Shown piece by piece: positions 5,344-39,256 of a stretch of DNA of 64,000 bases. Every line of letters starts with the position of its first letter. Within the stretch, counting starts at the first letter, position 1. The DNA comes from a virus. Where the stretch lies: the IMG/VR virus record IMGVR_UViG_3300045988_135886. One strand, given 5' to 3'. A program made the position numbers and the translations under genes. The notes under the pieces are model-generated. The model did no database searches. It worked only from the letters and a program-made list of their open reading frames with translations, and was not told the origin of the DNA.

Positions 5344-6114
5344 TCATGCCTCCTCTTCAAAGATGCTTCCGCTAATGCCTAAGGCTTCAGCAAGTAGTGT
5401 TTTCAGAGGCTCTGATGGATTCTGATCATTCAACCATCCTAAATAACTATCTGGAATTTCAGAGAGTGGTTCTCCCTTATGTTTGCCGAATGGCATAAGA
5501 TATGTTTCTGGTGTAGGTTTGAATTCTTTCATCAGTTCATCTACTTCAGTTTCATCAAAAGATACTGTTAAATCTTTTCTTGATGCTAAATAATCTGCTA
5601 AGTGAACTATCATCTGACCTTTTGTTTCTGGTAATGGCAGCTCATCTTTACTTCTTTTATCTGTGTTCCATTCACCCATATGTGAGGCGCAACAGTTTGC
5701 AATATAATCCAATTCTTCATCTGGCAACCATTCAAATCCTTTATAGGATTTTATTCTCTCAGCTATAAGTAACGGGTGTTTAAAAAGAGTATATTGACTG
5801 CCATTACGCCCAAGTTTTTCATCATCATGGTTCATAATAGCTGTTCGTAGCATATCTCTTTCTCTTGATGTAAACTGACTCTTGATACAATCAATTGACA
5901 GCATATGGTTTAAGAATCTAGTTGCCCCTTTTACATGTTTAGCAAGTCCCATAAAACCAACTGTATAATCAGGGTGATACTTGTTAGTACTTGAAGCAGA
6001 CACTTGCCAGAAATATGTAGGCGCAGTATCTAGTAATTCAATACAAAATTCCTGAATATCATCATTTTCAAATACTTCTAATTCTTCCTTAAAAAATCTC
6101 TCTGCTAATGTCAT
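5344..6114 (-). CDS. HD-domain phosphohydrolase with DUF3820-like C-terminus
   Basis: NKYHPDY and MNHDDEK (H/HD ligands); C-terminal PFGKHKGEPLSEIPDSYLGWL; ATGA overlap with the RNA ligase gene. Confidence 0.6.
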   Translation of the reverse strand: MTLAERFFKEELEVFENDDIQEFCIELLDTAPTYFWQVSASSTNKYHPDYTVGFMGLAKHVKGATRFLNHMLSIDCIKSQFTSRERDMLRTAIMNHDDEKLGRNGSQYTLFKHPLLIAERIKSYKGFEWLPDEELDYIANCCASHMGEWNTDKRSKDELPLPETKGQMIVHLADYLASRKDLTVSFDETEVDELMKEFKPTPETYLMPFGKHKGEPLSEIPDSYLGWLNDQNPSEPLKTLLAEALGISGSIFEEEA

Positions 6115-7400
6115 ACAGTTTCCTCCTCAATAATTTCTTGTGCCTCTTCCATATCCGGTGTATCAGAGGAATCTTTTATCAATCCTTCAAGGACCTTGAA
6201 AGTGAAATTCTTGTGCTTATAAGCCTTAAAGCTACTTCTATTATCAATTCTTACAACTACACCTTCTCTAACATGTGTCACCCCTATTGGATCAGGCCCA
6301 TCATAATATTTTTCCACACGCTCCATAAGATCTTCTTTAGTAGTAAACAGGAATTTATCAAATTCAGGTACATGTTTAACTCCTAAACGATCACACCAAT
6401 TCTTTACTTCTTCCCATGGAATCTCTGTAATAACTCCATCTTCATTGGTCATAGTCATTCTATAAACATAAATATCAGAAGTACCAGGAGTACACCCATA
6501 AGAGAACACTGTTTCATCACCGTAAAGCTTCTTAACTTCTTTATCTTTAATTTTAGCGTTGGAACAGGTTCCCATAATGGTCTGCTCTGTACCATCAACC
6601 CATCCTACAATTTCATAAAATACTTCCATTCCTTTTGGCAGTCTGTCAATAAAGTAGTCATGATATTTCTGTCTAAATTTATCATTCCCATAGTAACCGC
6701 CTTCAAATACAACTCTTCTTGTTCCAGTAACTATTTTCCATTCTTTGATAACAGGAGCCGGTCTACAAAAAAGTTTCTGTAGTAGAGTCTTTTTCTTAGT
6801 AGTTACTTCTATTGCATTTGCTGTTCGACCAGATGTGCCATGCATTTTCAAAGTAATGTAACAAGTATCTCCTGGTTTAAAGGCATTTAAGTTATATGCT
6901 AACTGTTCTGTATCAGCATGTTCTTTAAAATAAGGAAATTTGTTTTTTAAATTTGGAGTTTTTACTTTCGGACCATTGTTAGATTTTTTATGATTTGATC
7001 TTGGAATATATTTTTTACAGATAACTGTCCCATTAAGTACAGTAATTTGATCTCCTAAAGATAACTTATTTATATCAGTCCATTTGCTAAGAGATTCTAC
7101 TGGTAAAACCAATCCTTCTGATTTTTCACCTCGCAGTCTCATAGCTTTAATGTTTCGTTTTACAGGATCAAGATATCCACCTGTAGTTGTTCCATCTTCA
7201 TTTTTAATACGCAGCAAATTGTTTTCTTTTGCAAATTCTTCTCCTAGCTGACCATCAACCGGGAAAAATACAACTTTCTGCCCTTCGTAATAACTTAAAT
7301 CAACAATAACCGTATTTCCAAAAACGGTACCAAGCTGGAGCCTATCAGCATTGCTGTGTTTACGAAGTTGCTTAAGCTCAGTAATGTAAGCACAATACAT
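6111..7400 (-). CDS. ATP-dependent RNA ligase with N-terminal OB-like domain
   Basis: Nucleotidyltransferase motif I ITLKMHGTSGR; N-terminal HSNADRLQLG OB/tRNA-binding-like segment; 429 aa. Confidence 0.6.
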   Translation of the reverse strand: MYCAYITELKQLRKHSNADRLQLGTVFGNTVIVDLSYYEGQKVVFFPVDGQLGEEFAKENNLLRIKNEDGTTTGGYLDPVKRNIKAMRLRGEKSEGLVLPVESLSKWTDINKLSLGDQITVLNGTVICKKYIPRSNHKKSNNGPKVKTPNLKNKFPYFKEHADTEQLAYNLNAFKPGDTCYITLKMHGTSGRTANAIEVTTKKKTLLQKLFCRPAPVIKEWKIVTGTRRVVFEGGYYGNDKFRQKYHDYFIDRLPKGMEVFYEIVGWVDGTEQTIMGTCSNAKIKDKEVKKLYGDETVFSYGCTPGTSDIYVYRMTMTNEDGVITEIPWEEVKNWCDRLGVKHVPEFDKFLFTTKEDLMERVEKYYDGPDPIGVTHVREGVVVRIDNRSSFKAYKHKNFTFKVLEGLIKDSSDTPDMEEAQEIIEEETV

Positions 7401-11155: not shown

Positions 11156-12127
11156 TTATTTATTTTCAACAGTTGCTACATTGCCTGATGTTAATTCTCC
11201 TGCGTCAACAATTGTTGCAGCGTTTCCACCCTGTACCTTCGGCACATCACCATTCCATTTATCAATTTTCTGTTTCTCAATAAGCTCTGGAGTAAGAGAC
11301 TCGGCAATTTTCTTATTTGCTTCTGCTTCAGCATCCGCTTTAATTCTTGTTGCTTCCGCTTTACCTTCAGCAGTAATCTTCGCCTGTTCAGCCTCAATAG
11401 CGGCCTTTTCTTTATCCTGTTCTGCTGCAATAAGAGCAACTTCTTTATCTTTATCTGCCTGTACCTTTGCAGTCTTAGCTTCAATATTTGCAAGTTCCAG
11501 TTCCTGCTGTGCATTTACTTTCTTCTGAATAGCTGCCTGAGTTTCGTCATCGGTTGAAATCGAAGTAAAGTTTACAGTATCAATGATAATTCCATATGGC
11601 TCAAATTTCTTTTTTAAGTATTTGTCAAGTGCTTCATTCAGTTCCTGGCGTTTATCACCAAATACATCTGTTACCGGATACTTAGCAGTCACTTCCTGTG
11701 TCCACGCTTTCATCTTTGGTTTAATGAAAGTATTTTTTACACTTTCTCCGGACTGACCTTTAAATTTTGTAAATACATCAGCAACTTGATCCTGATCGAA
11801 CTTATAAGAGAATTCCAAATCAACAAGAAGCTGTTTTCCATCAGCAGTAGGTGTCTTAAAACTCTCATCTTTTGGTGAATCACCTTTATCTTCTGAAGTC
11901 AGATAAGACTGTTCAATACCAATTGAATACAGTGATGTTTTTACTGTAGGTGAAATCAAATTCCATCCCTGTGGAAGAGTATCTTTTGAAATTCCACCGT
12001 TCATCTTGTATTCTACAGCTACATAACCAGCAGGAACTCTTACTGTGCACTTTGCTATACAAATTAATCCTGCTGCAATTATTACTGCTAATCCAACCCC
12101 ACCTAAAAAACCTTTTTTCTTTTTCAT
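11156..12127 (-). CDS. SPFH/Band-7 (prohibitin/flotillin-like) membrane protein
   Basis: N-terminal TM helix, SPFH core, long Ala/Glu/Lys coiled-coil C-terminus (AQQELELANIEAKTAKVQADKDKE...). Confidence 0.75.
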   Translation of the reverse strand: MKKKKGFLGGVGLAVIIAAGLICIAKCTVRVPAGYVAVEYKMNGGISKDTLPQGWNLISPTVKTSLYSIGIEQSYLTSEDKGDSPKDESFKTPTADGKQLLVDLEFSYKFDQDQVADVFTKFKGQSGESVKNTFIKPKMKAWTQEVTAKYPVTDVFGDKRQELNEALDKYLKKKFEPYGIIIDTVNFTSISTDDETQAAIQKKVNAQQELELANIEAKTAKVQADKDKEVALIAAEQDKEKAAIEAEQAKITAEGKAEATRIKADAEAEANKKIAESLTPELIEKQKIDKWNGDVPKVQGGNAATIVDAGELTSGNVATVENK

Positions 12128-12294
12128 TACTCATTCCCCTTATCTTTTTCTTTATTTTCTTCTCTATTTATTTCGTCTGTTGCATCTTTCCAAATTCTAT
12201 ACAAGAATCGTCCGAATGGATAAAACAATGCAGATAATAGGAACCATAAAATTACTGCTCCAACCAATACTAAAAATACAAATACTGGATTCAT
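12127..12294 (-). CDS. Small membrane protein preceding the SPFH gene
   Basis: ATG 12294 behind AAAGGAGAGAG; MNPVFVFLVLVGAVILWFLLSALFYPFG then a charged tail; TAATG junction with the SPFH gene. Confidence 0.55.
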   Translation of the reverse strand: MNPVFVFLVLVGAVILWFLLSALFYPFGRFLYRIWKDATDEINREENKEKDKGNE

Positions 12295-12304
12295 ACTCTC
12301 TCCT

Positions 12305-12556
12305 TTATAATTCAATACCTTCCATAACAGCTCTAGCTTCTAAGATAGCTAAATAGTTTGCCATAGCATCAATCTGAATATTATAAGTACTTCTTGGACA
12401 TGTTGGCTCAAAACTAAGAGTTCCATTGTCCCATTTAAAAAGCATAGACTGTAAACCTCTGAATCTAAGCATTAACTGATAATACTCAGCTTTAAATCTT
12501 TCTTTATAATCTGGGCTAACCATCATTTCTGTTGTTTCTTTTAATGTTTTTACCAT
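12305..12556 (-). CDS. Conserved small phage protein (function unknown)
   Basis: ATG 12556 behind AAGGAG; KERFKAEYYQL..RF.GLQSML...FEPTCP...QIDAMANYLAILEARA, a pattern I recall from Firmicutes phages. Confidence 0.55.
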   Translation of the reverse strand: MVKTLKETTEMMVSPDYKERFKAEYYQLMLRFRGLQSMLFKWDNGTLSFEPTCPRSTYNIQIDAMANYLAILEARAVMEGIEL

Positions 12557-12707
12557 GTTATTTATCTCCTTTATGTTCTTTAATATCATTTACGAGTGTC
12601 CAAGTGAAAAAAGCTACTAGCATTAAACTAAATAAATTTTTATAAGTAATAAGATCTACTAATGATATTGCTATAAAAATAGCATATCAAGGATGATAAA
12701 AAATTTG

Positions 12708-13130
12708 TTAAACTTCATTTAATTCATCTCTCACTCTCATAAGTATCTTCCCAAGCCTATTTTCACCAACTCCATCTACAGTTCCCCAAATAGTGTCTCC
12801 CCAAGTATTACCCTCTTCCAAATATTCATCTCCTGTAGCAAGTAATTTTTCCTTAAGGTCTGGATTCTGAGTGAATTTAGCCAGTACGATTTCATACATT
12901 ACTTTATCTTTCACTTCTTCCCAATCTGATCTCAAATCAATCTTTCTACCTGCTGCCTTTGCCTCTGATGGGCTAGCTTGAGAAAATAACTGGAATTTTA
13001 GTCTACGATTTTTTGTTTTCTGTGCTTGAAAAGCTGCTTCATTATTTGTATAGTCCCATCCGTTATAACTTACCGGTGCCATATAAAAGTTACTTAAAAA
13101 GTAATAATCTCCAGTAAAACTATTAATCAT
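12708..13130 (-). CDS. NADAR (YbiA/DUF1768) domain protein
   Basis: YYFLSNFYMAPV...NNEAAFQAQK...GDTIWG; ATG 13130 behind AAGGAAGGA. Confidence 0.75.
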   Translation of the reverse strand: MINSFTGDYYFLSNFYMAPVSYNGWDYTNNEAAFQAQKTKNRRLKFQLFSQASPSEAKAAGRKIDLRSDWEEVKDKVMYEIVLAKFTQNPDLKEKLLATGDEYLEEGNTWGDTIWGTVDGVGENRLGKILMRVRDELNEV

Positions 13131-13143
13131 TCTTTTTCCTTCC

Positions 13144-13326
13144 TTAATAATCACTACAAGTTACTGTCAAACTTACAAATCCATCATTTTGCTCAAAAGA
13201 TGTAATAAGCTCATCTTTTACCAATTCTTCTACTATATCTCTGTCAGTTATTTTTGTTCCAATTAATTCAGGATCAGTCAAGTTGTATTCAGCTTCTACA
13301 GTGATCACTCTTTTTGTTGGTATCAA
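13144..13326 (-). CDS. Hypothetical protein, start uncertain
   Basis: The frame stays open upstream into the tRNA-like element. The only canonical start is TTG 13326. Confidence 0.35.
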   Translation of the reverse strand: MIPTKRVITVEAEYNLTDPELIGTKITDRDIVEELVKDELITSFEQNDGFVSLTVTCSDY

Positions 13327-13427
13327 AATTTCTTTCTCACATGCATCATCAATTGGTTTATTTAATATTCTTTTTCCTCTTTGCGTAATATCACCTCCAT
13401 ATTTTATTTCATTGTTTAACCTCCTTA

Positions 13428-13475
13428 AGTGTAGGTGAGGAATCGAACCTCACCTTAACCTTTTGTTACTACACT
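13428..13475 (-). ncRNA. tRNA-like acceptor/T-arm minihelix (3' tRNA fragment)
   Basis: Minus strand AGTGTAG-N15-GTGAGGTTCGATTCCTCAC-CTACACT: a 7-bp acceptor-like stem plus a canonical T-arm/T-loop, with no D or anticodon arm. Confidence 0.4.
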
Positions 13476-13559
13476 TATTTTCTCTTCCCTACAAAGAACC
13501 CAACTAAGAAACAGGCTAATAAGCATACCGCAAACACGCCTATATTCAACACTATCATT

Positions 13560-14309
13560 TTATTTGCCTTTCTTTGCTTTCAGTTCCTGCAGCTTTTTAT
13601 CAATTTCATCATCTTTCATTTTCTTATCCAGACGCTGTTTCTGTACAGTAGTAGAACTTTCATAAGCGATCCTAGCTCCATCAGCAGCTTCTTTCTGCTT
13701 TTTAACTCCGTCACGTACTTTCTCTAACATCTTTTCCTCTTCGCTGGAACATACTCCTGGCGTTACATTAAAAGCTTTTGATGCCTGAGCAGTCTCCAAA
13801 GTTAAAACAGCACTTTCTTTTTCTGCTTTTAAATCATTAAGTTGCTGCTGTAATACTTCTACTTTTTCTTTCTGTACATCAGCATTTTCTTTCCATTCTT
13901 TTAATGTATTTTTAATAAAATCAATCTTATCATTCAGCTCCTGTTGTTCTTTTAAGTAGACTTTTGCCGCTTCGTCATCTCCTCGATCCACACAAGCATT
14001 TACATTTACATCTGCTTTCATGGCATCTTTCTTCAAATGGAACAAATCATCTTCATAATTAGAAATCTTACCAAGCATCTGCTGATATCTTACATTTTCC
14101 TGCTGAAGTTCATCTTCTTTCTTCTCAATAGCGGCATTATAATATGCTTTAGCTCCTTCAGGTGTAGACGCATCTTTCTGAATCGCTTCGTTTGCCGTGC
14201 CAGATGCTCTTATCCTTACTCTTTTTCCAATTTTACTATTAAAAAAGAAACAAAGTCCTACGAGTACTAAAATAACAATTATAATAATTGCTCCAGCTGT
14301 AATATTCAT
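13560..14309 (-). CDS. PspA/IM30-like coiled-coil protein with N-terminal TM anchor
   Basis: TM MNITAGAIIIIVILVLVGLCFFF, then ACVDRGDDEAAKVYLKEQQEL and LTLETAQASKAF, which resemble PspA helices; TAATG junction with terD. Confidence 0.55.
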   Translation of the reverse strand: MNITAGAIIIIVILVLVGLCFFFNSKIGKRVRIRASGTANEAIQKDASTPEGAKAYYNAAIEKKEDELQQENVRYQQMLGKISNYEDDLFHLKKDAMKADVNVNACVDRGDDEAAKVYLKEQQELNDKIDFIKNTLKEWKENADVQKEKVEVLQQQLNDLKAEKESAVLTLETAQASKAFNVTPGVCSSEEEKMLEKVRDGVKKQKEAADGARIAYESSTTVQKQRLDKKMKDDEIDKKLQELKAKKGK

Positions 14310-14947
14310 TAGTCTCTCCCCTCATCAATATCAAGCCCAAAGTTTTTAAACAGTTCTGTCATACCTCCTACATAACCGGAACCTAATGCCTGGAATTTGA
14401 ATCCATCTCCGTAACGGTATAATTTACCCATTTCTACTGCATTCAATTTTTCAAAGTTTTCATTCTCAGACAGATCATATTCATACTTATCACCATCTGG
14501 ATTGTCGTAATCACAAATTGTCATAATTGCATTGGAGACCATTCCAAAATTCTGCATACGCTGTAAGGCCCTAAAAATTGTTAAGCAGATAGTAAATTCT
14601 GTTTTATCTTTCGGGAAAGTATCAGCATGCACAATGAAATATTCGTCATAATGCTTTCCATTGAAAATCATTCCCTGAGAATCATCACCAGTTTTATTGT
14701 CTCCTGAATAGTCTACCCAAGGATATGCAGAACCATCTTCATAGGTTTTATAGTTTACTAAATCTTCTGGATACACTACTTTACGACTTGAATCTGTTAA
14801 AAATCCATTGATATCAAAGTCAATGTCTGCTTCACCAGCATAACGGTTCTGATCCCAATTGACTCCAATAAAGAAATTCTTAATGCCTGTACCATCTTCT
14901 TTTACCATACTAATTTTCTGATTTTTGCTCATGTTGATTACTGCCAT
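14309..14947 (-). CDS. terD: TerD-domain (tellurite-resistance/Ca2+-binding) protein
   Basis: DIDFDINGFL, GDNKTGDD, FKFQALGSGY motifs typical of the TerD family. Confidence 0.85.
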   Translation of the reverse strand: MAVINMSKNQKISMVKEDGTGIKNFFIGVNWDQNRYAGEADIDFDINGFLTDSSRKVVYPEDLVNYKTYEDGSAYPWVDYSGDNKTGDDSQGMIFNGKHYDEYFIVHADTFPKDKTEFTICLTIFRALQRMQNFGMVSNAIMTICDYDNPDGDKYEYDLSENENFEKLNAVEMGKLYRYGDGFKFQALGSGYVGGMTELFKNFGLDIDEGRD

Positions 14948-14964
14948 ATTTCTTTATCTCCTTT

Positions 14965-15732
14965 TTATTTATTATTCAGCCAGTCTTTATACTGACGAAG
15001 AATCTCTGTATATAACTGTTCATCAGACATTTTATTCATGTCTTTTACTGCTGTAAAACCAGTGTTATCATGTTTTCTACCTTTCATATCATCAAGAGAT
15101 TTTAAATAGTCAAAATCTTCATCTCCAATTCCTATGAACTGCACGAAGATGTTGTACTCTGAAAGCTCTTTAATAACTGCATTGGTGGCAAAAGTATCAC
15201 TGTTCTCACCATCTGTAATAAAAATGATAAATGCTGGAATCTCACTTGGCTCAATATCTTTATAATATGTAACCATTTCTTTCAATACAGGAGCATAATT
15301 AGTACCACCCATATACATATGAGCTTTTTTCATAACATTTTTAACATAACTACTATAATTATCAGCGTTAGCAGCTTTTAAGCGCTCTGCTCCATTTGAG
15401 AACAGCCAACTCTCAAGTTCTCCATTATCGTCAAATCTTAGAGCAATAGGCAACAAACGAGAAATGGTTTCCTGTACAGATCCATTATCATACAGCCAAT
15501 CCATACTTCCTGAATAATCCATTGCAAGAGCTACTCTAGCCGTATGTTTTGTCATATCAATCTTGCTTCCCTTAGACATATCAATAAGTACTTTGCCAAG
15601 ATTTTCATTGTGCTTAGACATATCAATTGTCTGTAACTTTTCTTCATATACAGGTTGCTGAGTTACAGCAGAAGATAACTCTACTGCTGCTTCCTCATCT
15701 TTTTTTCCGAATAATTTTCCCAAAAATCCCAT
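14965..15732 (-). CDS. von Willebrand factor A (vWA) domain protein
   Basis: MIDAS motif LAMDYSGSM, ...GGTNY..., FITDGE. Confidence 0.8.
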   Translation of the reverse strand: MGFLGKLFGKKDEEAAVELSSAVTQQPVYEEKLQTIDMSKHNENLGKVLIDMSKGSKIDMTKHTARVALAMDYSGSMDWLYDNGSVQETISRLLPIALRFDDNGELESWLFSNGAERLKAANADNYSSYVKNVMKKAHMYMGGTNYAPVLKEMVTYYKDIEPSEIPAFIIFITDGENSDTFATNAVIKELSEYNIFVQFIGIGDEDFDYLKSLDDMKGRKHDNTGFTAVKDMNKMSDEQLYTEILRQYKDWLNNK

Positions 15733-15733
15733 T

Positions 15734-18355
15734 TTAGTTACTTCCTTTCTTACAAATTGCTTTTCTAATCCAATCTACAGGCACAACCATAAATGCTGTC
15801 ACTAAGACTACAATCCACTGTTTAGCATCCATTGGAGTTGTCTGTACTAGATTTCCTACAAAGTTACACAAAACTACAGTCATTGCAAAAATACCCAATG
15901 CGATATACACAAATAATTTGTTATTTTTAATTCCTTTGAAAAGATTCATACTATCTGTTCTAATAGTGAATCCATTAAATACTGCCATTAGACACAATAA
16001 AGCGAATCTCGCTGTCATAGCCGAAAGTTTTGTTGTAAACATATTTCCAACTGGACCAAATGTAATTACACCAAATAAAGCAATAAATACAATTGAACTT
16101 AATGCAATTCTCCCTTTCGCTCCACGGATAAATAATCCGGATCCTTTCATGATAGGCTCTTCATTCATATATTCCTCTTTTGGCGGTTCTCCACCAAAGC
16201 TTAATGAGTTAAGTGAATCCATGATGATATTTACAATAAGGATCTGAACTGCTGCTAATAGAGCAGAGCCACCAGAAATAATTGGAAATACCATACTTAA
16301 GATCAACAACGAAATATTGATAGGTAGCTGGAATTCAAGGAACATCATAATGTTATGCATAAATGTTCTACCAAGTTCGACTGCCTTTACCACACTTGCA
16401 AAATTATTGTCTGTCAAAACAATATCTGCTGCTTCTTTTGCTACATCAGATCCGTCTTGCATTCCAAAGCCTACATCTGCTTTCTTTAGTGCAGGAGCAT
16501 CGTTCACACCGTCTCCGGTCATTGCCACAGACATTCCAATTTCTTGCGCTAATGTTACAAGACGAAGCTTCGTATTCGGTGAGCATCTGGAAATTACTCT
16601 TAACTGTGGAATAATTTCTTTTACTTTTACATCTGACATTGCCTCAAACTCATCATTGGTAACTGCTAAGTCTCCAGGCTTATAAATGCCAGCTTCCATA
16701 GCAACAGCCTTAGCAGTCTCCATACAGTCACCAGTAATTTCAATTACCTGAATTCCAGCTTTATGAGCAATTTTTACTGCTTCTGGAACTTCATTCCTAA
16801 CCGGGTCAACAACTCCAATGACTCCAAGGAGATTCATTTCATCGGGGAGACCATCATCAGTTTTATCTGAGATAGTCAATGCAATACATCTCATTGCCTT
16901 CTCTGTCAATCCCTTAATATGGCTCTTTAAAGCTTTTCTTTTTTCTTCTGTCAGCTCAGTTGCAATGCCATCATTATCAAGATAAAATTTACACTTCTCA
17001 ATTAATTTCTCTGGTGCGCCTTTATAAACAGTAAAATCATTTGCTCCATTATTTAAAGTAACTGCAGAGAATTTATTTTCACTACTAAATGGAACACGTT
17101 TTTTCATGATAGCTTTATTCTGTATTTTTTGTGCATCTTCAGGAGAAAGCATATCAAGCACTGCTCGATCAATTGAATTGCCACCAGTGATATTCCCATT
17201 AGAATCAAACACTGCACTATTATTCATACAAATGTTTAAATCAATTAGCTCGTTGAGCGGACTTTCCTTATTAAAAATATCCTGACAGTTACCGTTAATC
17301 ATAACTGTAGAAGTCATTTCACCTGTTGTGAGAGTTCCTGTCTTATCCGTACAAATTAAATTAACATATGCCAATTCAGGAATTTTACCAGTATTCTTCG
17401 CAAGAATATTGAATTTTTCCATTGTCGATACATTCTGTTTAGTTACAAGTTTTACAATGAGTGGCAGACCTTCCGGTACAGCCGCAACAATAATTGTTAA
17501 TGCATTTGAGATATTCTGTGCTACTTTCTGAATATTTTCAAGAATGTTTCCTGAGAAATACTGACTTAAACTTCCAGCATTTAAGATACCTGTAATTGTC
17601 ATAATTACAAATGCTAATACTGCCGCAATTGTTCCCCATTTTGAAATAAAATCACACAAATGATCCAGAGCAATATCAAGAGCTGTCTTAGGAGGCTCTA
17701 AAGTCTGCATTTTGACAAGAGTATCACCGTTAACTGTATTAACACCAACATCTGTAACAATCATTTTTCCTTCACCAGACATAATAACTGTTCCTGCAAA
17801 GAGCGAACACTGATCCGTATATGCAGCAGTAGATGTTGTTTTAACATGCTTATAATTAGCACTAGGAATTTTTCTACATTCTTTTGTCTCTCCATTGATA
17901 GCGGCATTATTAACAGAAATTTCTCCTTCAACAATAAAACCATCTGCAAAAATCTCTTGTCCAGTTCTCAATAAAACTAAATCACCTACTACCAGATCAT
18001 CTTTATTAATTGTCTGTACGCTTCCATCTCGAACAACATCACAATATCTAACTGCCGTTTTTGCTCTTAACTCTGCTGCAGATTTCTGTATTCCTAGACC
18101 TGTCTTAACAGCAATTTCAGTAACAATAGCTAAAACTACTATAATCATTACAGGTTCAGAAAGAGCCATTACTCCCATAGCTCCTAGAACTAACTGGAAT
18201 AAAGCAATTATTATTAGAATCATAGTAATTGGCTCAGTTAATGCTTCCTTAGCAAAATGATACCATTTTTTCAATTCAGGTTCCGGAAGCTTATTACTTC
18301 CATATGTAGTCCTACTAACCCCTACTTCGCTACTTTTTAATCCATTAAAATTCAT
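15734..18355 (-). CDS. P-type ATPase, Ca2+-transporting (type II-like)
   Basis: 873 aa; phosphorylation site ICTDKTGTLT, hinge MTGDGVNDAPAL, TGE-like loop, about 10 hydrophobic segments. Confidence 0.9.
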   Translation of the reverse strand: MNFNGLKSSEVGVSRTTYGSNKLPEPELKKWYHFAKEALTEPITMILIIIALFQLVLGAMGVMALSEPVMIIVVLAIVTEIAVKTGLGIQKSAAELRAKTAVRYCDVVRDGSVQTINKDDLVVGDLVLLRTGQEIFADGFIVEGEISVNNAAINGETKECRKIPSANYKHVKTTSTAAYTDQCSLFAGTVIMSGEGKMIVTDVGVNTVNGDTLVKMQTLEPPKTALDIALDHLCDFISKWGTIAAVLAFVIMTITGILNAGSLSQYFSGNILENIQKVAQNISNALTIIVAAVPEGLPLIVKLVTKQNVSTMEKFNILAKNTGKIPELAYVNLICTDKTGTLTTGEMTSTVMINGNCQDIFNKESPLNELIDLNICMNNSAVFDSNGNITGGNSIDRAVLDMLSPEDAQKIQNKAIMKKRVPFSSENKFSAVTLNNGANDFTVYKGAPEKLIEKCKFYLDNDGIATELTEEKRKALKSHIKGLTEKAMRCIALTISDKTDDGLPDEMNLLGVIGVVDPVRNEVPEAVKIAHKAGIQVIEITGDCMETAKAVAMEAGIYKPGDLAVTNDEFEAMSDVKVKEIIPQLRVISRCSPNTKLRLVTLAQEIGMSVAMTGDGVNDAPALKKADVGFGMQDGSDVAKEAADIVLTDNNFASVVKAVELGRTFMHNIMMFLEFQLPINISLLILSMVFPIISGGSALLAAVQILIVNIIMDSLNSLSFGGEPPKEEYMNEEPIMKGSGLFIRGAKGRIALSSIVFIALFGVITFGPVGNMFTTKLSAMTARFALLCLMAVFNGFTIRTDSMNLFKGIKNNKLFVYIALGIFAMTVVLCNFVGNLVQTTPMDAKQWIVVLVTAFMVVPVDWIRKAICKKGSN

Positions 18356-18357
18356 TC

Positions 18358-19389
18358 TTAAATCTCTCCTAATACAATTCTTTCATTGACAGACATTACA
18401 AACTCTTCTATAGCTTTATAATTTGGTTTATCAGGCAATGAGGTATTCTTTGAATCATACTCAAGTCTTTTCTCTAACTCGTTTACCATTTCAAAAAATT
18501 CTGGGATAGGCTGACTGTTTGCATCCAAATATTCTCCATTACGTAGAGCCATAAGAAGCTCATGATCATCTTCTCTATATGTAATAATTTTGCCTTTTTC
18601 AAGAATATCAAAACACATAAGATACAATCTCACTAAATGGCACATATGCTTTCCTAGCTTATTATGTTCTATGGCATGTCTGTTTCTTTTTCCAACTTTA
18701 GAGTAATCCTTAACAATATTTTTCATTTCAGCCCACATCCCCTGATAATCATTCAAAGGATAGTGCTTCAACTGGATATCCATAAATACTTCTGTTTCAT
18801 AATCTTCCTGAATACCTTTATCTACATAAAGCTTTATTGCATCTTCTGGAAAATTGAAATACTTTTCAGGGAAAGTATAAAAAGCATTCATAATACTATT
18901 AAGAACATGCTGCATTCTTTCTTCTTGCCCTAGCTTTCTAGCAGCTTTATTATCAAGCCTTCTTAGCTGGCTTGTAGCATAGCCTCCAAAAGAATAGATC
19001 GCTTTCTTAGATAAAAACATTTCAGCATTATCAAGAAGTTCTTGACCAATTGGATGAATATAAAGATAATGTTCCGGCTTCAATCCTATCAGCTCAATTG
19101 TGTTTGGGTTGCAGTTTGACAATAGAGTTATCAATTTATTAAAAGAATAGATTGTTGTATCTGTTGTTTCTTCCGTTACCTGATCAAAATTATGTGTAGG
19201 AATCAGGATTTCTTCTCTTTTATTTAAAGCACAACCCCTAATATCCAGATCGGAGCTTTCTGTATCTGTACCATAAGCATGAGACCCACCTAAGCCTAAT
19301 AGAATTATGTTGCTCCCCAGGTGCTCGTCCGCTCTTAAGAAATCATAATGTTCACTTTTCAACAACTTCTTGATTTTCTCTATCTTCAT
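18358..19389 (-). CDS. Pol-beta-fold nucleotidyltransferase (RlaP/PF10127-like)
   Basis: GLGGSHAYGTDTESSDLDIRG (GS...DxD). ATG 19389 behind AGGAGAA is preferred over the track TTG 19392. Confidence 0.65.
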   Translation of the reverse strand: MKIEKIKKLLKSEHYDFLRADEHLGSNIILLGLGGSHAYGTDTESSDLDIRGCALNKREEILIPTHNFDQVTEETTDTTIYSFNKLITLLSNCNPNTIELIGLKPEHYLYIHPIGQELLDNAEMFLSKKAIYSFGGYATSQLRRLDNKAARKLGQEERMQHVLNSIMNAFYTFPEKYFNFPEDAIKLYVDKGIQEDYETEVFMDIQLKHYPLNDYQGMWAEMKNIVKDYSKVGKRNRHAIEHNKLGKHMCHLVRLYLMCFDILEKGKIITYREDDHELLMALRNGEYLDANSQPIPEFFEMVNELEKRLEYDSKNTSLPDKPNYKAIEEFVMSVNERIVLGEI

Positions 19390-19870
19390 CAATTTCTCCT
19401 GTTGAATAATAATAATTTACTATATCGTCTAAGTTCCTTATCTCTTTTTCTAACTCTGCACACTTTTTCTTGCTATCACATGCCCATAACTGTTTTCGTA
19501 GCTTCGTTGCAACCTCAGATACCTTTTCTGCTTCTTCTGTTTTATCAATGGTTTCTATGACATCAACTTCAATTGGTTCTCCGCAAAATGGACAGAATTT
19601 AAGAGGGTAATAATAGTCTTCAGGCCATGTATCTTCCCAGTCTTGGACTTCTTCGCTTACGTAAAAGAAAATTCCAAAAGTTTCATCAGTTTTATAGTCA
19701 CAACCATGGCATTCTATAGTTTCACAAGTTCTACATAAATAGTTATCAGGATATTCATTAGAAATAACTATCCTAGGATTCTCTTCCAATGCTTTGCAAC
19801 AGAATTTAGGTTTATAATATTTATAAGATGTGCTCCTATCTACAATTATTTGCTTTGCTTTTATTTCCAT
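19352..19870 (-). CDS. Cys-rich (multi zinc-ribbon) hypothetical protein
   Basis: CCKAL, CRTCETIECHGC, CPFCGEP; acidic C-terminus. Confidence 0.55.
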   Translation of the reverse strand: MEIKAKQIIVDRSTSYKYYKPKFCCKALEENPRIVISNEYPDNYLCRTCETIECHGCDYKTDETFGIFFYVSEEVQDWEDTWPEDYYYPLKFCPFCGEPIEVDVIETIDKTEEAEKVSEVATKLRKQLWACDSKKKCAELEKEIRNLDDIVNYYYSTGEIDEDRENQEVVEK

Positions 19871-20860: not shown

Positions 20861-22009
20861 TTACATGTCCTCCATTGAATAAATTACTCTTTCTAAACTT
20901 CTTTTTGATTTGAAACACTTCTTAAGTAAACACCACATAATGGCTTTTTCAGTATCATCTTCGTCTTCCCAATCATTTAAGACTACAGAAGTCTGTGTTC
21001 CATCTTTGAATCCTACAGTAGTTCTAATTTTCCCTGTAGCAATATCTTTTGTTCTTCCTACAAATGAAATATCATCTTTAGACAATGTTTTATAAACACG
21101 TTTATCAAAATCATCTTTAGATATAATGTATACATCAACGCCTAAAGCCTCTTTAATTTGACGTTCACAGCTCCTAAACTCTTTATCGAGTGCATGCTTA
21201 TGATTAATAGTTTCTTGAGCCTTCTCTAAAGCTACAGCAATATCTTCTGGTGAGCAACAATATGTCATATTATTATCCTCCTTGTAATTGAAATACGGCA
21301 TTGGTTTCATTTTAAACTTATTTTTTGTATGTAAACGATCAATCCGTCTTTTAATTTCCGGATCATCGCAAATACCTGTACGAATATATCTATCTAATAC
21401 TGCATAGGTAAATCCGAAGTTATCTTCATCTGATTTACCGCATAACCCATCTGATGGTGTTTTCTCTACATATTTTTTAGGTAATCCTAAGTAATAACCG
21501 ATTCTTTTTACTTCACTCTTTGTGAACTGTGCCAATGGAGCAAAGTCTCCTGCTGAGTCACCATATCTAGTGGAGTATCCGATGTAATCCTCACTAAGGT
21601 TACATGTATTAACCACTCTTCCATTGTGTGACTGCGATACCCCGTATAGAGTGGCCATTCTTAGTCTAGGAGCGAGATTAATTAATGTCTGATCTGTTAC
21701 ATTAAATGCAGCATCAATTTGATCAATAATATCATCATAAGCTGATCCAATATTAATAGTAAGATAATCAATGTTTAATACATGCTGGCAAATATCATAA
21801 GCCACACAAATATCATCCTGTTTATAATTTGGCATAATTACTCCAAGAACCTTGTCAGCTCCAATAGCTTCTACACATAACTCAGCAGCCACTAAAGAAT
21901 CAACACCACCGGAGATACCTACTATAAAATTACATCCTGGGCCGTTCTCTTCTCTCCAATCTCTAATCCACTGAATACAATCATTTGTTGCTTTTTCTAC
22001 ATTAAACAT
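20861..22009 (-). CDS. nadE: NH3-dependent NAD+ synthetase (NadE) fused to an unknown ~135-aa C-terminal domain
   Basis: PP-loop GISGGVDSLV, SDEDNFGFTY region. There is an internal in-frame AAGGAGGATAATAATATG near 21270. Confidence 0.75.
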   Translation of the reverse strand: MFNVEKATNDCIQWIRDWREENGPGCNFIVGISGGVDSLVAAELCVEAIGADKVLGVIMPNYKQDDICVAYDICQHVLNIDYLTINIGSAYDDIIDQIDAAFNVTDQTLINLAPRLRMATLYGVSQSHNGRVVNTCNLSEDYIGYSTRYGDSAGDFAPLAQFTKSEVKRIGYYLGLPKKYVEKTPSDGLCGKSDEDNFGFTYAVLDRYIRTGICDDPEIKRRIDRLHTKNKFKMKPMPYFNYKEDNNMTYCCSPEDIAVALEKAQETINHKHALDKEFRSCERQIKEALGVDVYIISKDDFDKRVYKTLSKDDISFVGRTKDIATGKIRTTVGFKDGTQTSVVLNDWEDEDDTEKAIMWCLLKKCFKSKRSLERVIYSMEDM

Positions 22010-22502
22010 TCTGCTCCTCCAATTTCCACAATTCTACTTTAAAACTACTTAATTCTTCTTCTATAATCTTATAAACCACTTCCCAGTCTGCTCCTCCTCT
22101 TCCGCAGCCTATTTTGTATGGGAGTGCAATGGTTGTCTTATGAGGCCTGTTATCAGCATCAAACCAATAAACAGGTATTTGTTGTTGAATGAAATTTAAT
22201 CCTTCTCGAAAAGCTTTAACATCAGTATATTGTTTCCCATCATATTCGTATTTATCTTGTGCAAATAAGGATAATATTCCTTGATTTTTCCTTCTGATAA
22301 AGTATTCGTCATATGTTCCAAGAAGTAATTCTGGATTAAACTCACGTAATTTACAGACGTTTCTATAATGTATATAAATACCTTCGTCATAATCTCTTAA
22401 TGCTTTAGCAACTCCAGTATTCATTTTTCCTTGGCAATTAACTTGATGAATTATATAGTCGGTCTGCGCATCTACAATGTTACCTTCAATAATTTTAATC
22501 AT
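22002..22502 (-). CDS. Macro domain protein (ADP-ribose binding/hydrolase)
   Basis: ATG 22502; IIEGNIVDAQTDYIIHQVNCQGKMNTGVAKAL ... IGCGRGGADWE. Confidence 0.65.
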   Translation of the reverse strand: MIKIIEGNIVDAQTDYIIHQVNCQGKMNTGVAKALRDYDEGIYIHYRNVCKLREFNPELLLGTYDEYFIRRKNQGILSLFAQDKYEYDGKQYTDVKAFREGLNFIQQQIPVYWFDADNRPHKTTIALPYKIGCGRGGADWEVVYKIIEEELSSFKVELWKLEEQNV

Positions 22503-22512
22503 AAATCTTTTC

Positions 22513-22920
22513 CTATAAATCCTGAAATGTAAACTTCTCGCCACAGGAGCAAATCACTTCTCCAATAGTTCCTATTGATGTTGGTGTAAAGCACCATGTA
22601 AGAGAACCGCCTATGCAACCATGTCCCATTGCTCTCTGTTTAGAAGTTTTCAGACCATGTTTCTCAGCATCATGTTTTAATTCCCACTCTCTGATTTTCT
22701 CTTGTTCTTTTTCTGAAATTGGAAATCCTCTATATAAATCGTCTTTTGCTTCTTTTAACTCAGCTTCCATTCTTTGCATTTCAGAATCTTTATAATGCTC
22801 ATCTTTGAGCTTCTTGTTTTCTTCTTCTAAGTATTTAATTCGTTTTTCATAAGTGTCTACTTTATCAACAATCCCCTGACAAAGATCTGAAACTGAATCA
22901 GTAAAATATGTACTACTCAT
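22513..22920 (-). CDS. Coiled-coil protein with C-terminal Cys/His cluster
   Basis: 135 aa, heptad-rich N-terminal half, HGCIGG...CSCGE. Confidence 0.5.
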   Translation of the reverse strand: MSSTYFTDSVSDLCQGIVDKVDTYEKRIKYLEEENKKLKDEHYKDSEMQRMEAELKEAKDDLYRGFPISEKEQEKIREWELKHDAEKHGLKTSKQRAMGHGCIGGSLTWCFTPTSIGTIGEVICSCGEKFTFQDL

Positions 22921-22937
22921 TTTTTATACCTCCATAT

Positions 22938-23411
22938 CTACTCCATAAATGATGAAACATGTACGGTTACAAAATCACTATGTGCACGAATATAATCCAA
23001 AGTTTTAACTGTATCTTCTACAATTGCAATCTGAGATGGCTTAAGTCCGAGCTTTTGTTGCAGCGTTTGAAGCACAGTAAGTTTTTCTGTCTTTTCTAAA
23101 GTGAAATAGATATTATCATCTGGCAGATCATAATTGTCTTTTATAAAAGCTCTTTTACCAGGAATTTCATTTAAAGGACTCTTTGAACAGGTATATACTT
23201 TATTCACGCCTTTATTCTGAATAAACTCCTGCATTAATTTGATCGGACGCACATCTTTATACGGATTCTCACCGGAAGCTACAAGTCTGTCCCATTCATC
23301 GTCAGTCATACTATGACTTAATTCAGAAAACTCATACGGAGCAAGTACTCCATCTACATCCATTACTACAATCACATCATCTTTTAATAAATAATCTGTA
23401 ATTTTACTCAT
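22938..23411 (-). CDS. HAD-superfamily phosphatase-like protein
   Basis: VVMDVDGVLAP (DxDxV nucleophile motif); 157 aa; overlaps the NAMPT-like stop. Confidence 0.5.
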   Translation of the reverse strand: MSKITDYLLKDDVIVVMDVDGVLAPYEFSELSHSMTDDEWDRLVASGENPYKDVRPIKLMQEFIQNKGVNKVYTCSKSPLNEIPGKRAFIKDNYDLPDDNIYFTLEKTEKLTVLQTLQQKLGLKPSQIAIVEDTVKTLDYIRAHSDFVTVHVSSFME

Positions 23412-24879
23412 CTTTGTTTCTTCCGTTTAATCTGTCTCTGATTTCTTTAAATATTTCTGTATGATATATTTCACCGTCTTTAAATACAGTTTTTAATGCC
23501 CCATCATAAACAAAGCTGTCATATCCATCTCTGCACCTTAATTCTCCATTTTCATCGTAATATACATGACAACATCCTTTATGAGATTTCTTTAAATGGC
23601 TTACATCTGTCTTTGGATCTTTGTAAATCATAATCGGTTGTCCGTTAACTTCTCCAAATGTAGCTTTCATAGCAATGCCGAACATATCTCTGGTTACAAC
23701 GACCATACGTCCATCAGGTTCTACAACTGCCGAGAAACAAAAAGCCCCAACTCCAAATACAATGTTGTTTGCAGCGAATCCTTTCTTCTCAAGTTCTTCC
23801 CATACCTTTTTTACATTGTTAAGAGTACAGCCATCACCATAGATAATTCCAATATGAGGGTCCAGTACTTTGTAACCTTTGCTATTTACTGATCCTTTAA
23901 ATGTATTCCAGAGTTTTTCGATAGTCTTAACTGAAATCTCTACCATATCACCAGAATCCGGACGAACCAAGAGCTTACCATTGTGCTGCATAATTTCTTT
24001 TTTGCAAGCTGGAAGAATATTGTCAATCATGTTCCAGTAATCATATGTATCAGATACCATGCTGAAAGATGCATTCGGATATAATTCTGTAAGTAGTCTT
24101 TTCACAAATGTAATTTCGTCTCCGTCCACAGCATAATTTGAAGCCATGACCGCATGTTCGGTAGAAATCGCACCAATTCCAATATGACTCACGCTACAGT
24201 CATTGAAATAATATTTGTCCAAATAATCAATTGCCGGGATCGTACTTGTCTTATCAAAGGATAATAGCCAAGCAACGGAGCATCTCTCTGCTTCTTCCAT
24301 ACAGGACATTCCACGCATTCCAAAGTCTGAGCAGGCCATTTCAGGTCTTAAAATGTCGTCGCAGGTCTTTTTATAGTAGAAATTTGCCAGTTCTCTGTAC
24401 ATATGTCCAATTGTTGCATGAGCACACGGCTTCCAAAGCTCAACCTGCAGAATACACTCAATCCACTGCACAACCCATGCAAAATCTGGATGTGTATTCG
24501 TGATTTCAATGCATGGCACTCCCATAGGCACTAATGTACCTTCCGGCAATGCACGGATCTGAATCGGAAGATACCCTAATTCGTGAAGTTTAAGGATTGG
24601 AGAAATATCGTAATTTCCTTCTCCTAACTGAATGTCCATACTAATTGTATAAAGTTCTTGAACTTCATCAGTGCTTAATTTAAAGAAATCTCTTTTAAAA
24701 TATGTAATAAGATATTCTTTAATAAAAGCCTGCAGTCCGAAGAAAACCATATGATCCTGCTCCTTTAACATTGATCTTCTCGGAGTCCAATAAGAGACTA
24801 ACTTCGTCAATCCTCTCGGAAACATATTGTGGTGTACTTGTTTGTAAGTATCGCTTAACAGAATTGCTAAGGTATCCAT
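23404..24879 (-). CDS. Nicotinamide phosphoribosyltransferase family protein (NAMPT/NadV-like or Namat-like)
   Basis: 491 aa; LSDTYKQVH, VSDTYDYWN, LLVRPDSGD, IIYGDG motifs of the NAMPT family. Confidence 0.8.
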   Translation of the reverse strand: MDTLAILLSDTYKQVHHNMFPRGLTKLVSYWTPRRSMLKEQDHMVFFGLQAFIKEYLITYFKRDFFKLSTDEVQELYTISMDIQLGEGNYDISPILKLHELGYLPIQIRALPEGTLVPMGVPCIEITNTHPDFAWVVQWIECILQVELWKPCAHATIGHMYRELANFYYKKTCDDILRPEMACSDFGMRGMSCMEEAERCSVAWLLSFDKTSTIPAIDYLDKYYFNDCSVSHIGIGAISTEHAVMASNYAVDGDEITFVKRLLTELYPNASFSMVSDTYDYWNMIDNILPACKKEIMQHNGKLLVRPDSGDMVEISVKTIEKLWNTFKGSVNSKGYKVLDPHIGIIYGDGCTLNNVKKVWEELEKKGFAANNIVFGVGAFCFSAVVEPDGRMVVVTRDMFGIAMKATFGEVNGQPIMIYKDPKTDVSHLKKSHKGCCHVYYDENGELRCRDGYDSFVYDGALKTVFKDGEIYHTEIFKEIRDRLNGRNKDE

Positions 24880-33675: not shown

Positions 33676-33727
33676 AGTATACCATAGTCATTCTACCTTG
33701 TCAACACTTTTTTTACAAACTTGTTTA
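33676..33727 (-). promoter_or_regulatory. Second tandem sigma70 promoter plus 18-nt box (copy 3)
   Basis: Minus strand TAAACAAGTTTGTAAAAAAAGTG-TTGACA(33704-33699)-17 nt-TATACT(33681-33676). The box lies inside the last codons of ligA. Confidence 0.6.
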
Positions 33728-36996: not shown

Positions 36997-36998
36997 AA

Positions 36999-39246: not shown

Positions 39247-39256
39247 GCAATTCACC

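Follow-up and report, generated by a model that had tools for sequence, protein, structure and literature searches.

Gene content and organization of the locus

Here we describe four genes that lie side by side at positions 13560-18355, on the minus strand, of a 64,000-nucleotide stretch of viral DNA (IMG/VR record IMGVR_UViG_3300045988_135886; the whole stretch is referred to below as the window), and that encode a P-type Ca2+-ATPase, a TerF-type vWA protein, a TerD-domain protein and a membrane-anchored PspA-like protein (Table 1). An original prediction, made from the nucleotide sequence without database searches, had joined these genes with an SPFH/Band-7 gene and a small transmembrane (TM) partner into one module at 11156-18355. 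Our check of the open reading frames (ORFs) found every listed gene in its place on the minus strand, and the proposed domains held in profile searches: the P-type ATPase, TerF-type vWA, TerD and SPFH domains scored well above curated thresholds, and the PspA assignment is carried by a Pfam match of 29 bits together with the fold and a family profile.

The four genes form a translationally coupled operon, read in the order ATPase-vWA-TerD-PspA. The vWA start codon is found 1 nt past the ATPase stop, vWA and TerD are 17 nt apart, and TerD and the PspA-like gene have a TAATG in common, which agrees with the shared TAATG and the gaps of 1-17 nt noted earlier from the junctions. A Shine-Dalgarno sequence precedes each start codon at the junctions, and upstream of the operon a gap of only 2 nt separates the ATPase gene from a gene for an RlaP nucleotidyltransferase.

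Table 1. Positions of the features of the window that are discussed in the text
Feature	Position	Strand	Evidence or remarks
P-type (P2, PMCA-like) Ca2+-ATPase, 873 aa	15734..18355	minus	Pfam, NCBIfam and PDB matches; first and largest gene of the core operon
TerF-type vWA protein, 255 aa, stand-alone, copine-like vWA domain	14965..15732	minus	PF10138
TerD-domain protein, 212 aa, non-canonical subtype, 8-aa insertion in Ca2+ loop	14309..14947	minus	PF02342
Membrane-anchored PspA/IM30 (ESCRT-III fold) protein, 249 aa	13560..14309	minus	PF04012, AlphaFold2 model, Foldseek, family profile
Hairpin	13435-13455	minus	perfect 7-bp stem
NADAR-domain protein	12708-13154		weak PADLOC match to PDC-M42C
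crAss001_48 protein ("Sequestin" in newer Pfam names)	12305-12589		PF21825; between PspA-like gene and SPFH cassette, in an indel-variable stretch
62-aa single-TM protein, SPFH partner	12127..12315	minus	one TM segment; synteny
SPFH/Band-7 (prohibitin-like) membrane protein, 323 aa	11156..12127	minus	Band_7 1.7e-23, phrog_200 4.5e-66
RlaP nucleotidyltransferase	18358-19392		directly upstream of the operon
RNA ligase	6111-7400		
NAD synthetase, NAMPT, NAD-dependent DNA ligase	20861-24879, 33693-35738		
Tyrosine integrase/recombinase-like genes	36091-37002, 38248-39255		phrog_5830, phrog_216/phrog_1; within replication/metabolism region

Properties of the four proteins

The ATPase matches the Pfam models E1-E2_ATPase (4e-32) and Cation_ATPase_C (3e-31), as well as Cation_ATPase_N, and passes TIGR01517, the NCBIfam equivalog model for PMCA-type Ca2+-ATPases, by a narrow margin (508.3 bits at a cutoff of 507.05). 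Its best matches in the PDB are the plant PMCA-type pump ACA8 (9e-104), Listeria LMCA1 (2e-91) and SPCA1 (1.5e-90). Across 105 distinct phage homologues the motifs CTDKTGTLT (residues 335-343), KGAPE (445), ITGDC (540) and TGDGVNDAPAL (613) are invariant or nearly so, and the phosphorylation site D337 of DKTGT never varies, nor do the ligands of Ca2+ site II, namely E295 (in PEGL, M4), N680 (M5), and N709 and D713 (both M6), which align with the motifs of ACA8 and LMCA1. Because only the ligands of site II are present and M5 contains no acidic residue, the protein is predicted to be a one-site pump like PMCA, LMCA1 and SPCA, which would carry one Ca2+ in each cycle. Ten hydrophobic segments are arranged in a 2+2+6 layout. 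In the A-domain, NGE[T/S] stands in place of TGES, with N154, G155 and E156 invariant, such that the catalytic glutamate is kept and the threonine replaced by asparagine. The start of the protein aligns to residue 144 of ACA8, and it therefore lacks an N-terminal extension of the ACA8 type, which in that pump is an autoinhibitory region. By its sequence the enzyme is a single-site P2-type Ca2+ pump, which the rule for its family predicts would export Ca2+ from the cytoplasm.

The second protein matches PF10138 (vWA-TerF-like) at 1.4e-59, with 202 bits against a threshold of 29.4, and the Copine model at 6.7e-11. Its metal ion-dependent adhesion site (MIDAS; DxSxS...T...D, residues D72, S74, S76, T144 and D174) is complete, and invariant in 60 distinct homologues. 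The domain is not fused to an N-terminal TerD domain, as it is in TerF; TerD is instead encoded by the next gene. Profile searches gave no domain match for the N-terminal 60 residues, the first 11 of which are conserved as MG[LF][FL]xKLFGKK and are similar to MGLFDR/MGIFSR, with which helix alpha0 of Vipp1/PspA begins. We considered this segment as an amphipathic membrane anchor and dropped the idea, since its hydrophobic moment ranks only at the 31st percentile when compared with the other 11-mers of the protein.

The TerD protein matches PF02342 at 2e-34 (119 bits, threshold 25.3) and, the loop insertion aside, aligns end to end with K. pneumoniae TerD, a protein that binds Ca2+ (2KXT, 8.5e-23). 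Its loop reads GDNKTGDDSQGMIFNGKHYDE; it contains an 8-aa insertion, retains GDN, TG and the final DE, and departs from the canonical GDNxTGxGDGDDE. The difference follows gene content among relatives: the canonical Ca2+ loop is found in none of 38 TerDs linked to a vWA gene, as against 53 of 54 vWA-less TerDs.

By its fold and family profile, the fourth protein is a member of the PspA/IM30 superfamily in which an N-terminal TM helix (approximately residues 5-23) replaces the amphipathic helix alpha0. The window protein matches PF04012 (PspA_IM30) in register over model positions 24-219 of 220, with an E-value of 1e-6 and a score of 29 bits that falls short of the gathering threshold (33.9). 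An AlphaFold2 model (mean predicted local distance difference test score, pLDDT, 72; about 90 in the hairpin) places the TM helix before a hairpin of residues 50-109 and 112-180, followed by helices at 189-222 and 233-246, which is the ESCRT-III/PspA topology; the top 17 Foldseek matches in the PDB are all Vipp1 or PspA, with Asgard and eukaryotic ESCRT-III next. The family comprises 194 clusters among 1.84 billion representative proteins, nearly all of about 245 aa, and 43 of 81 aligned members match PF04012 at E<=0.001 (best 1.3e-18; a relative at locus L172 reaches 42.4 bits). When the family profile was searched against the PDB, Vipp1/PspA chains made up the top 11 matches, in register and at 1.4e-7. 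In most of these 81 proteins the N-terminus is hydrophobic and resembles the TM helix of the window protein, and one (P0474) begins like canonical PspA. As a single TM helix is followed by a basic stretch, the ESCRT-III domain is expected to be cytoplasmic and tethered to the membrane. TelA was tried as an identity for this helical protein and rejected, given the absence of a TelA match and the support of Pfam, the PDB profile search and the fold for PspA/Vipp1. The psp partner genes PspB, PspC and PspF are absent from the region of the window, and scans of viral contigs with two distant family members (P0412 and P0417) returned no relatives. In the 233-nt gap after the PspA-like gene, the minus strand contains a small hairpin, GGTGAGGTTCGATTCCTCACC, whose stem is perfect and which includes the tRNA T-loop-like sequence GGTTCGATTCC; neither ARAGORN nor Rfam assigned it to a tRNA or RNA family (Rfam gave nothing at E<=1 between 10800 and 20000), and it might have been left by a tRNA or an att-like site, or else mark the end of a transcript.

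Profile searches matched no gene between 11156 and 19392 to TerB, TerC or TelA. We therefore file the operon as a Ter variant, since TerD and the TerF-type vWA are its only Ter components, and not as a canonical Ter operon.

Conservation of the operon in related phages

Using the ATPase or TerD as queries, we gathered 157 related viral loci and mapped all ten local proteins onto them; co-conservation was then counted in the 113 distinct sequences in which the ATPase is present and followed by 3.5 kb or more. TerD is encoded in all 113 sequences and the PspA-like protein in 112, always starting 1.4-2.1 kb past the ATPase gene; the sole exception, L033, has a clean deletion of TerD2, TerD3 and PspA. 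Two arrangements account for this set of parts. The arrangement of the window, ATPase-vWA-TerD-PspA (arrangement A, 72 sequences), has a TerD with a non-canonical Ca2+ loop, and in arrangement B, ATPase-TerD-TerD-TerD-PspA (40 sequences), three TerD genes with canonical loops replace vWA and TerD, leaving the parts list the same.

The association persists down to 46-62% identity in the ATPase and about 30% in the PspA-like protein, and the identities are mosaic. Relative to the window, one locus (L012) has an ATPase 98%, a vWA protein 98%, a TerD 84% and a PspA-like protein 60% identical, while another (L096) gives 48%, 75%, 90% and 68%, respectively. As the parts recombine between lineages and all are nevertheless retained, selection appears to maintain the full set across a large clade of Blautia-type phages. 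When the PspA-like profile was run against 185,579 species genomes, only 8 loci came up, all on contigs of metagenome-assembled genomes, and each of the 7 with enough flanking sequence carries the ATPase and TerD. Natural disruptions occur in a few relatives (L162, 5758-8279 and 14585-15793; L163, 7008-8174; L051, 13192-13802), in the form of an ATPase split in two, IS110 insertions (one of them between ATPase and vWA) and a frameshifted middle TerD. Such disrupted copies, together with the existence of cellular ATPase-TerD operons (see below), would fit passenger DNA, i.e. a host operon that was picked up and is carried without phage-specific function; we judge this highly improbable in view of the retention of the operon where ATPase identity has fallen to as little as 46%, the active-site residues staying invariant, and of the small size and narrow distribution of the PspA-like family, whose few loci in the species genomes belong to the operon wherever the flank is long enough to tell.

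Two further genes were considered as members and set aside. A 67-aa TM ORF between the ATPase and the first TerD of arrangement B is not conserved (it is absent, for example, in L028), and the RlaP gene adjoins the operon in some lineages only; in others it lies at a distance of 3-10 kb or on the opposite flank.

The SPFH cassette is a separate unit

The SPFH domain of the neighboring gene is well supported (84 bits against a Pfam threshold of 23.6), its closest solved structures being prohibitins (2e-7). Its 62-aa partner matches no family in profile searches, NfeD included, and lies immediately upstream of the SPFH gene in 80 of 80 SPFH loci. The two genes are thus a true pair, and they form an independent mobile cassette outside of the core operon. 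Of the single 7.2-kb module originally proposed, in which SPFH and its small partner would act together with PspA, TerD, vWA and the pump, the co-conserved stretch from the ATPase to PspA stands, and the inclusion of the SPFH pair and of the variable genes in between does not. Sister lineages carry a 97%-identical cassette some 24-28 kb from the operon, dozens of phage contigs of 40-85 kb that fall outside the 157 operon loci carry an 88%-identical one, and within those loci SPFH is found at 10 kb or less from the operon in about 30 only, so that we rejected it as a member on synteny. A functional link would be suggested by its distance of 1.2-4 kb in the window phage and close relatives, by the PspA/Band-7 operons that are known in bacteria (PMC11237479), and by an unrelated phage-like contig (L268) in which a 34%-identical SPFH gene lies directly upstream of a TM-PspA cassette with ABC transporter genes, a hint of a looser link; as a genomic unit, the larger module is largely refuted, and we consider it quite unlikely to act as one. 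The intervening genes, for a 60-aa ORF, a NADAR-domain protein and crAss001_48, are kept only in relatives above about 89% identity, and this stretch shows gene-level insertions and deletions even among strains with identical TerD.

The carrier phage and its host

All ORFs of the window are on the minus strand, the guanine-cytosine content is approximately 34%, and the gene content, with abundant PHROG families, is of the type of a large phage or phage-plasmid. Near-identical DNA is present both in viral contigs of IMG/VR (about 90-250 kb) and in contigs from metagenomes (200-400 kb), and homologues at NCBI are labelled Caudoviricetes sp., all of which bears out the view that the operon is phage-borne. 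Besides the operon, the window encodes replication and nucleic-acid proteins (a DnaB-type helicase, a Sak4-like annealing protein, an RNA ligase and an NAD-dependent DNA ligase), NAMPT, NAD synthetase, an Ant-like anti-repressor, two tyrosine recombinases and three tRNAs. Database entries with exactly the vWA and TerD sequences of the window are assigned to MULTISPECIES [Blautia] and Blautia obeum (WP_081017021.1, WP_055053134.1, CUN81128.1, CUN81096.1), from which we take the host to be Blautia. The exact TerD sequence is found in 5471 blocks of an assembly collection, and on more than 1000 contigs; the former count indicates that the element is very common in human guts. The carrier is a large and very prevalent Blautia phage or phage-plasmid. 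Its two recombinase-like genes and the identical proteins in Blautia genome records suggest that this phage, of more than 130 kb, is temperate or lives like a plasmid, and, with the Ant-like gene, make a persistent phase plausible.

A few features of the surroundings are recorded here in their own right. NAD synthetase, NAMPT and the NAD-dependent DNA ligase, with the NADAR-domain protein, amount to an NAD+ toolkit similar to the NAD+ synthesis sets that have been reported for gut jumbo phages (PMC11662467). RNA repair is a second theme, with the RlaP gene directly upstream of the operon and an RNA ligase gene further off; in relatives L160-L163 a CCA-adding enzyme, a second RNA ligase and a PARG-like gene adjoin the operon. 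One contig (IMGVR_UViG_3300029402_000234; 250,027 bp) contains two operon copies about 190 kb apart (L009 and L022), with ATPases 98% and 71% identical to that of the window, and is either a chimera or co-assembly of two related phages or a genuine duplication. Against GenBank phages, megablast of the 7.2-kb stretch gave no match, and tblastn of the ATPase gave only matches below 35% identity, mostly to unannotated records that in our reading resemble host contamination.

Relation to known systems

The view that no phage system combining such parts had been described turned out to be too strong. Complete and abbreviated Ter operons (TerD, TerC, TerF, TelA) were reported in jumbo phages by Iyer et al. 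in 2021, with a proposed use against superinfecting phages; in their scheme TerD is the ligand sensor and TerC the membrane or transport responder, and TelA and the TerF vWA make up sub-membrane structures (PMC7824862). The operon of the window is likewise phage-borne, pairs TerD with a TerF-type vWA, has one membrane transport and one sub-membrane helical component, and invites the same proposal of a membrane-level exclusion of competitors. It differs in having a P-type Ca2+-ATPase in the slot of TerC and a TM-anchored PspA/ESCRT-III protein in that of TelA, in the absence of TerB and of nucleotide-signal enzymes, and in its host, a gut member of the Bacillota. By analogy, we infer that the pump takes the place of TerC, and PspA that of TelA, in an abbreviated Ter system.

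Closer in habitat are the Jug phages of Bacteroides/Phocaeicola, which encode Ca2+-translocating P-type ATPases "not detected previously in phages" (PMC12880540; preprint PMC12363816). The same study found Ca2+ P-type ATPases in 85 other gut phages, some of them closest to Bacillota ATPases, as well as a terD-pspA-like operon in Jug phages and high in vivo transcription of the ATPases (PMC12880540). Both groups are thus gut phages with such a pump, with TerD proteins and with a pspA-like gene beside terD, the PspA-like proteins having been compared by description only. In Jug phages, however, the ATPase, which has a small gene upstream, occupies another locus than the terD-pspA-like pair and is transcribed independently of it, and vWA is unmentioned in the paper, whereas the parts in the window belong to one translationally coupled operon.

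A cellular counterpart exists on an uncultured gut Clostridiales/Christensenellales chromosome (L174/L175), where an operon Ca-ATPase-TerD-TerD-TerD-AIM24 lies beside the S10 ribosomal operon. As in the phages, a P2 Ca2+-ATPase directly precedes a TerD array, and TerD types and order match arrangement B, the first two TerDs being 58-59% identical to TerD2 and TerD3 of that arrangement in the same order. The two ATPases, by comparison, are only 35% identical, the operon is cellular, and AIM24 (L174/L175, 13154-13864) stands in the position of the phage PspA; the third TerD of the Clostridia operon has a 110-aa N-terminal extension. This chromosomal operon suggests that the pump with a TerD array is a cellular design to which phages added the tethered PspA.

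Two other explanations of the phage operon were weighed. The first is that the pump lowers host cytosolic Ca2+ for the sake of phage replication, be it replication itself, packaging or a rewiring of Ca2+-regulated physiology, with TerD and vWA acting as buffers or pump regulators and PspA as a pump scaffold only. This is the published hypothesis for the highly transcribed Jug-phage ATPases (PMC12880540); the pump is the first and largest gene of the operon, and the bacterial ATPase-TerD operons without PspA suggest a plain Ca2+-homeostasis unit. It leaves unexplained why PspA is kept in 112 of the 113 phage versions and why TM-PspA proteins pair with unrelated transporters, and no Ca2+-dependent process is known for this phage, so that we regard it as possible and rather unlikely. 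The second, raised with the original prediction, is control of lysis timing: tethered PspA and Ca2+ handling would counter premature depolarization by holins and so lengthen the latent period of a large, slow phage. PspA classically maintains the proton-motive force under envelope stress (PMC11237479), and the PspA domain of the window protein would face the cytoplasm. Yet no holin or endolysin gene adjoins the operon in the window or its relatives, and the equivalent bacterial ATPase-TerD operons are unrelated to lysis; we consider this explanation improbable.

Other subgroups of the TM-PspA family (L266, L268, L172) occur in cassettes of the order ABC permease, ABC ATPase, 175-aa protein, TM-PspA and solute-binding/OmpA protein. 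On phage-like contigs such cassettes are also accompanied by NAMPT and NAD synthase (e.g. L266), or by PhoH/NrdD. The operon type, a TM-anchored PspA/Snf7 protein with an ABC transporter and a PBP-OmpA protein, was described by Ravi et al. in 2024 (PMC11237479). Its PspA proteins belong to the same small family of about 245 aa, with an N-terminal TM helix and a conserved D-x-A-x-TPEGA motif, always adjoin a membrane transporter, and occur on large phage-like contigs as well; unlike in the window, the partners are an ABC permease/ATPase and a solute-binding OmpA protein, and TerD, vWA and a P-type pump are absent. A membrane transporter next door is thus the constant theme of the TM-PspA family.

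With the plasmid and chromosomal terZABCDEF operons (IncHI2 R478 type), the window operon shares TerD-family proteins and a TerF-type vWA domain; it is without TerA, TerB, TerC, TerE and TerZ, and its vWA is unfused to TerD. PMC8123226 (citing Pan 2011, Daigle 2015 and Whelan 1997) gives Ca2+ as a ligand of TerD, notes an influence of TerD on Ca2+ homeostasis, and attributes to ter operons the ability to inhibit phages and to resist colicins; inhibition of phages and resistance to pore-forming colicins are phenotypes that fit a role in membrane protection. The transported and sensed ion could also be Mn2+ or another divalent metal, in which case the operon would be a metal-homeostasis unit analogous to TerD-TerC. 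Herelleviridae phages of Bacillus and Lysinibacillus carry TerD-TerD-TerC, the TerC family is linked to Mn2+ export (PMC10197570), and the window pump, which passes the PMCA model only marginally, has site II ligands only, like the Ca2+/Mn2+ pump SPCA, with a near-equal PDB score. The best family and PDB matches, on the other hand, are Ca2+ pumps (ACA8 and LMCA1), and Ca2+ is the only characterized TerD ligand (PMC8123226), which makes another metal a poor candidate in our view.

A literature search found no paper combining TerD, PspA and vWA. Phage Ter operons (2021), and phage Ca2+-ATPases with a terD-pspA-like pair (Jug phages, 2025/26), were already known, and the interpretation offered below is not new in kind. 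One conserved operon that unites pump, vWA, TerD and PspA appears to be undescribed, as does its parallel to cellular ATPase-TerD operons and to TM-PspA-transporter cassettes.

A putative Ca2+ and membrane protection module

The most coherent reading of the operon, judged from its genes and their conservation, would be protection of the membrane and of Ca2+ balance; we hold with moderate confidence that the four genes form an abbreviated Ter-type stress module, which would handle Ca2+ and protect the membrane of the infected cell and is possibly used in superinfection exclusion or to resist pore-forming attack. This reading is supported by the nearly complete co-occurrence of TerD and PspA-like genes with the ATPase, by mosaic identities with the full set kept, by the invariant catalytic, ion-site and MIDAS residues, and by translational coupling. 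It gains further support from arrangement B, in which the parts list is kept, from the Clostridia counterpart with three TerDs and AIM24, and from the pairing of TM-PspA relatives with transporters. The neighborhood, moreover, is rich in gene kinds associated with phage-host conflict (NADAR, RlaP, RNA ligase, NAMPT and NAD synthetase).

In such a module, membrane injury would let Ca2+ leak in; candidate causes of the injury are a competing phage that injects its DNA, bacteriocins, pore formers of abortive infection, and the phage's own holins. TerD and vWA may bind the cation below the membrane, in the manner of a split TerF or a split copine, the tethered PspA polymer would seal or stiffen the damaged bilayer, and the pump would bring cytosolic Ca2+ back to its resting level. 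The infected or lysogenic cell would thereby stay alive and energized, and competing phages might in addition be kept out, in line with the phage inhibition and colicin resistance seen with ter operons of plasmids.

Several observations count against this interpretation. The A-domain of the pump departs from TGES, the match of the pump to the PMCA model exceeds the cutoff by no more than about 1 bit, and single-site P2 pumps such as SPCA carry Mn2+ too. Ca2+ binding by a vWA-linked TerD is not assured, because the 8-aa insertion breaks the canonical loop. Promoter and terminator scans gave no more sites than shuffled sequences, and the boundaries of the transcript are therefore deduced from gene spacing only. 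PADLOC returned no match for the four core proteins, or for SPFH. Lastly, relatives with a split ATPase, IS110 insertions, a frameshifted TerD or the deletion of TerD2, TerD3 and PspA indicate that the module is dispensable at times.

A more specific version of the protection reading draws on an analogy with eukaryotes, in which Ca2+-triggered repair of the plasma membrane involves Ca2+ sensors and copines, ESCRT-III and PMCA. By fold, the operon offers the same set: a pump of PMCA type, a vWA domain like that of copines, a beta-sandwich of a Ca2+-binding family and a polymer with the ESCRT-III fold. The likeness is meant as an analogy only, without a claim of common descent as a system, and the operon includes no Vps4-like ATPase. 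To our knowledge, a Ca2+-triggered ESCRT-III repair mechanism has not been demonstrated in any bacterium or phage. Tentatively, and as a rather unlikely possibility, the operon might be a Ca2+-triggered membrane-repair kit in which TerD and the copine-like vWA sense Ca2+ entry and recruit or activate the tethered ESCRT-III protein (PspA) at the wound, while the PMCA-type pump resets Ca2+. It would then be a prokaryotic or viral counterpart of eukaryotic Ca2+-dependent ESCRT-III repair, by which the phage would survive pore-forming defenses, bacteriocins or rival phages.

Significance for Ter biology and gut phages

Ter proteins have been known for decades for resistance to tellurite, phages and colicins, without a mechanism. 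Here, more than 100 diverged phage genomes tie TerD and the TerF-type vWA to a pump predicted to export Ca2+ and to a bacterial ESCRT-III protein that is anchored in the membrane. The Ca2+-ATPases and the TerD/PspA-like genes of gut jumbo phages appear to be functionally linked, at least in phages of Bacillota. The host genus is cultivable, as identical proteins are annotated in genome records of Blautia obeum. If the repair-kit reading were true, it would be the first mechanistic answer to the question of what TerD and TerF do; more generally, the gene context points to Ca2+-linked membrane protection, and a compact system of four genes makes the function of TerD and TerF testable.

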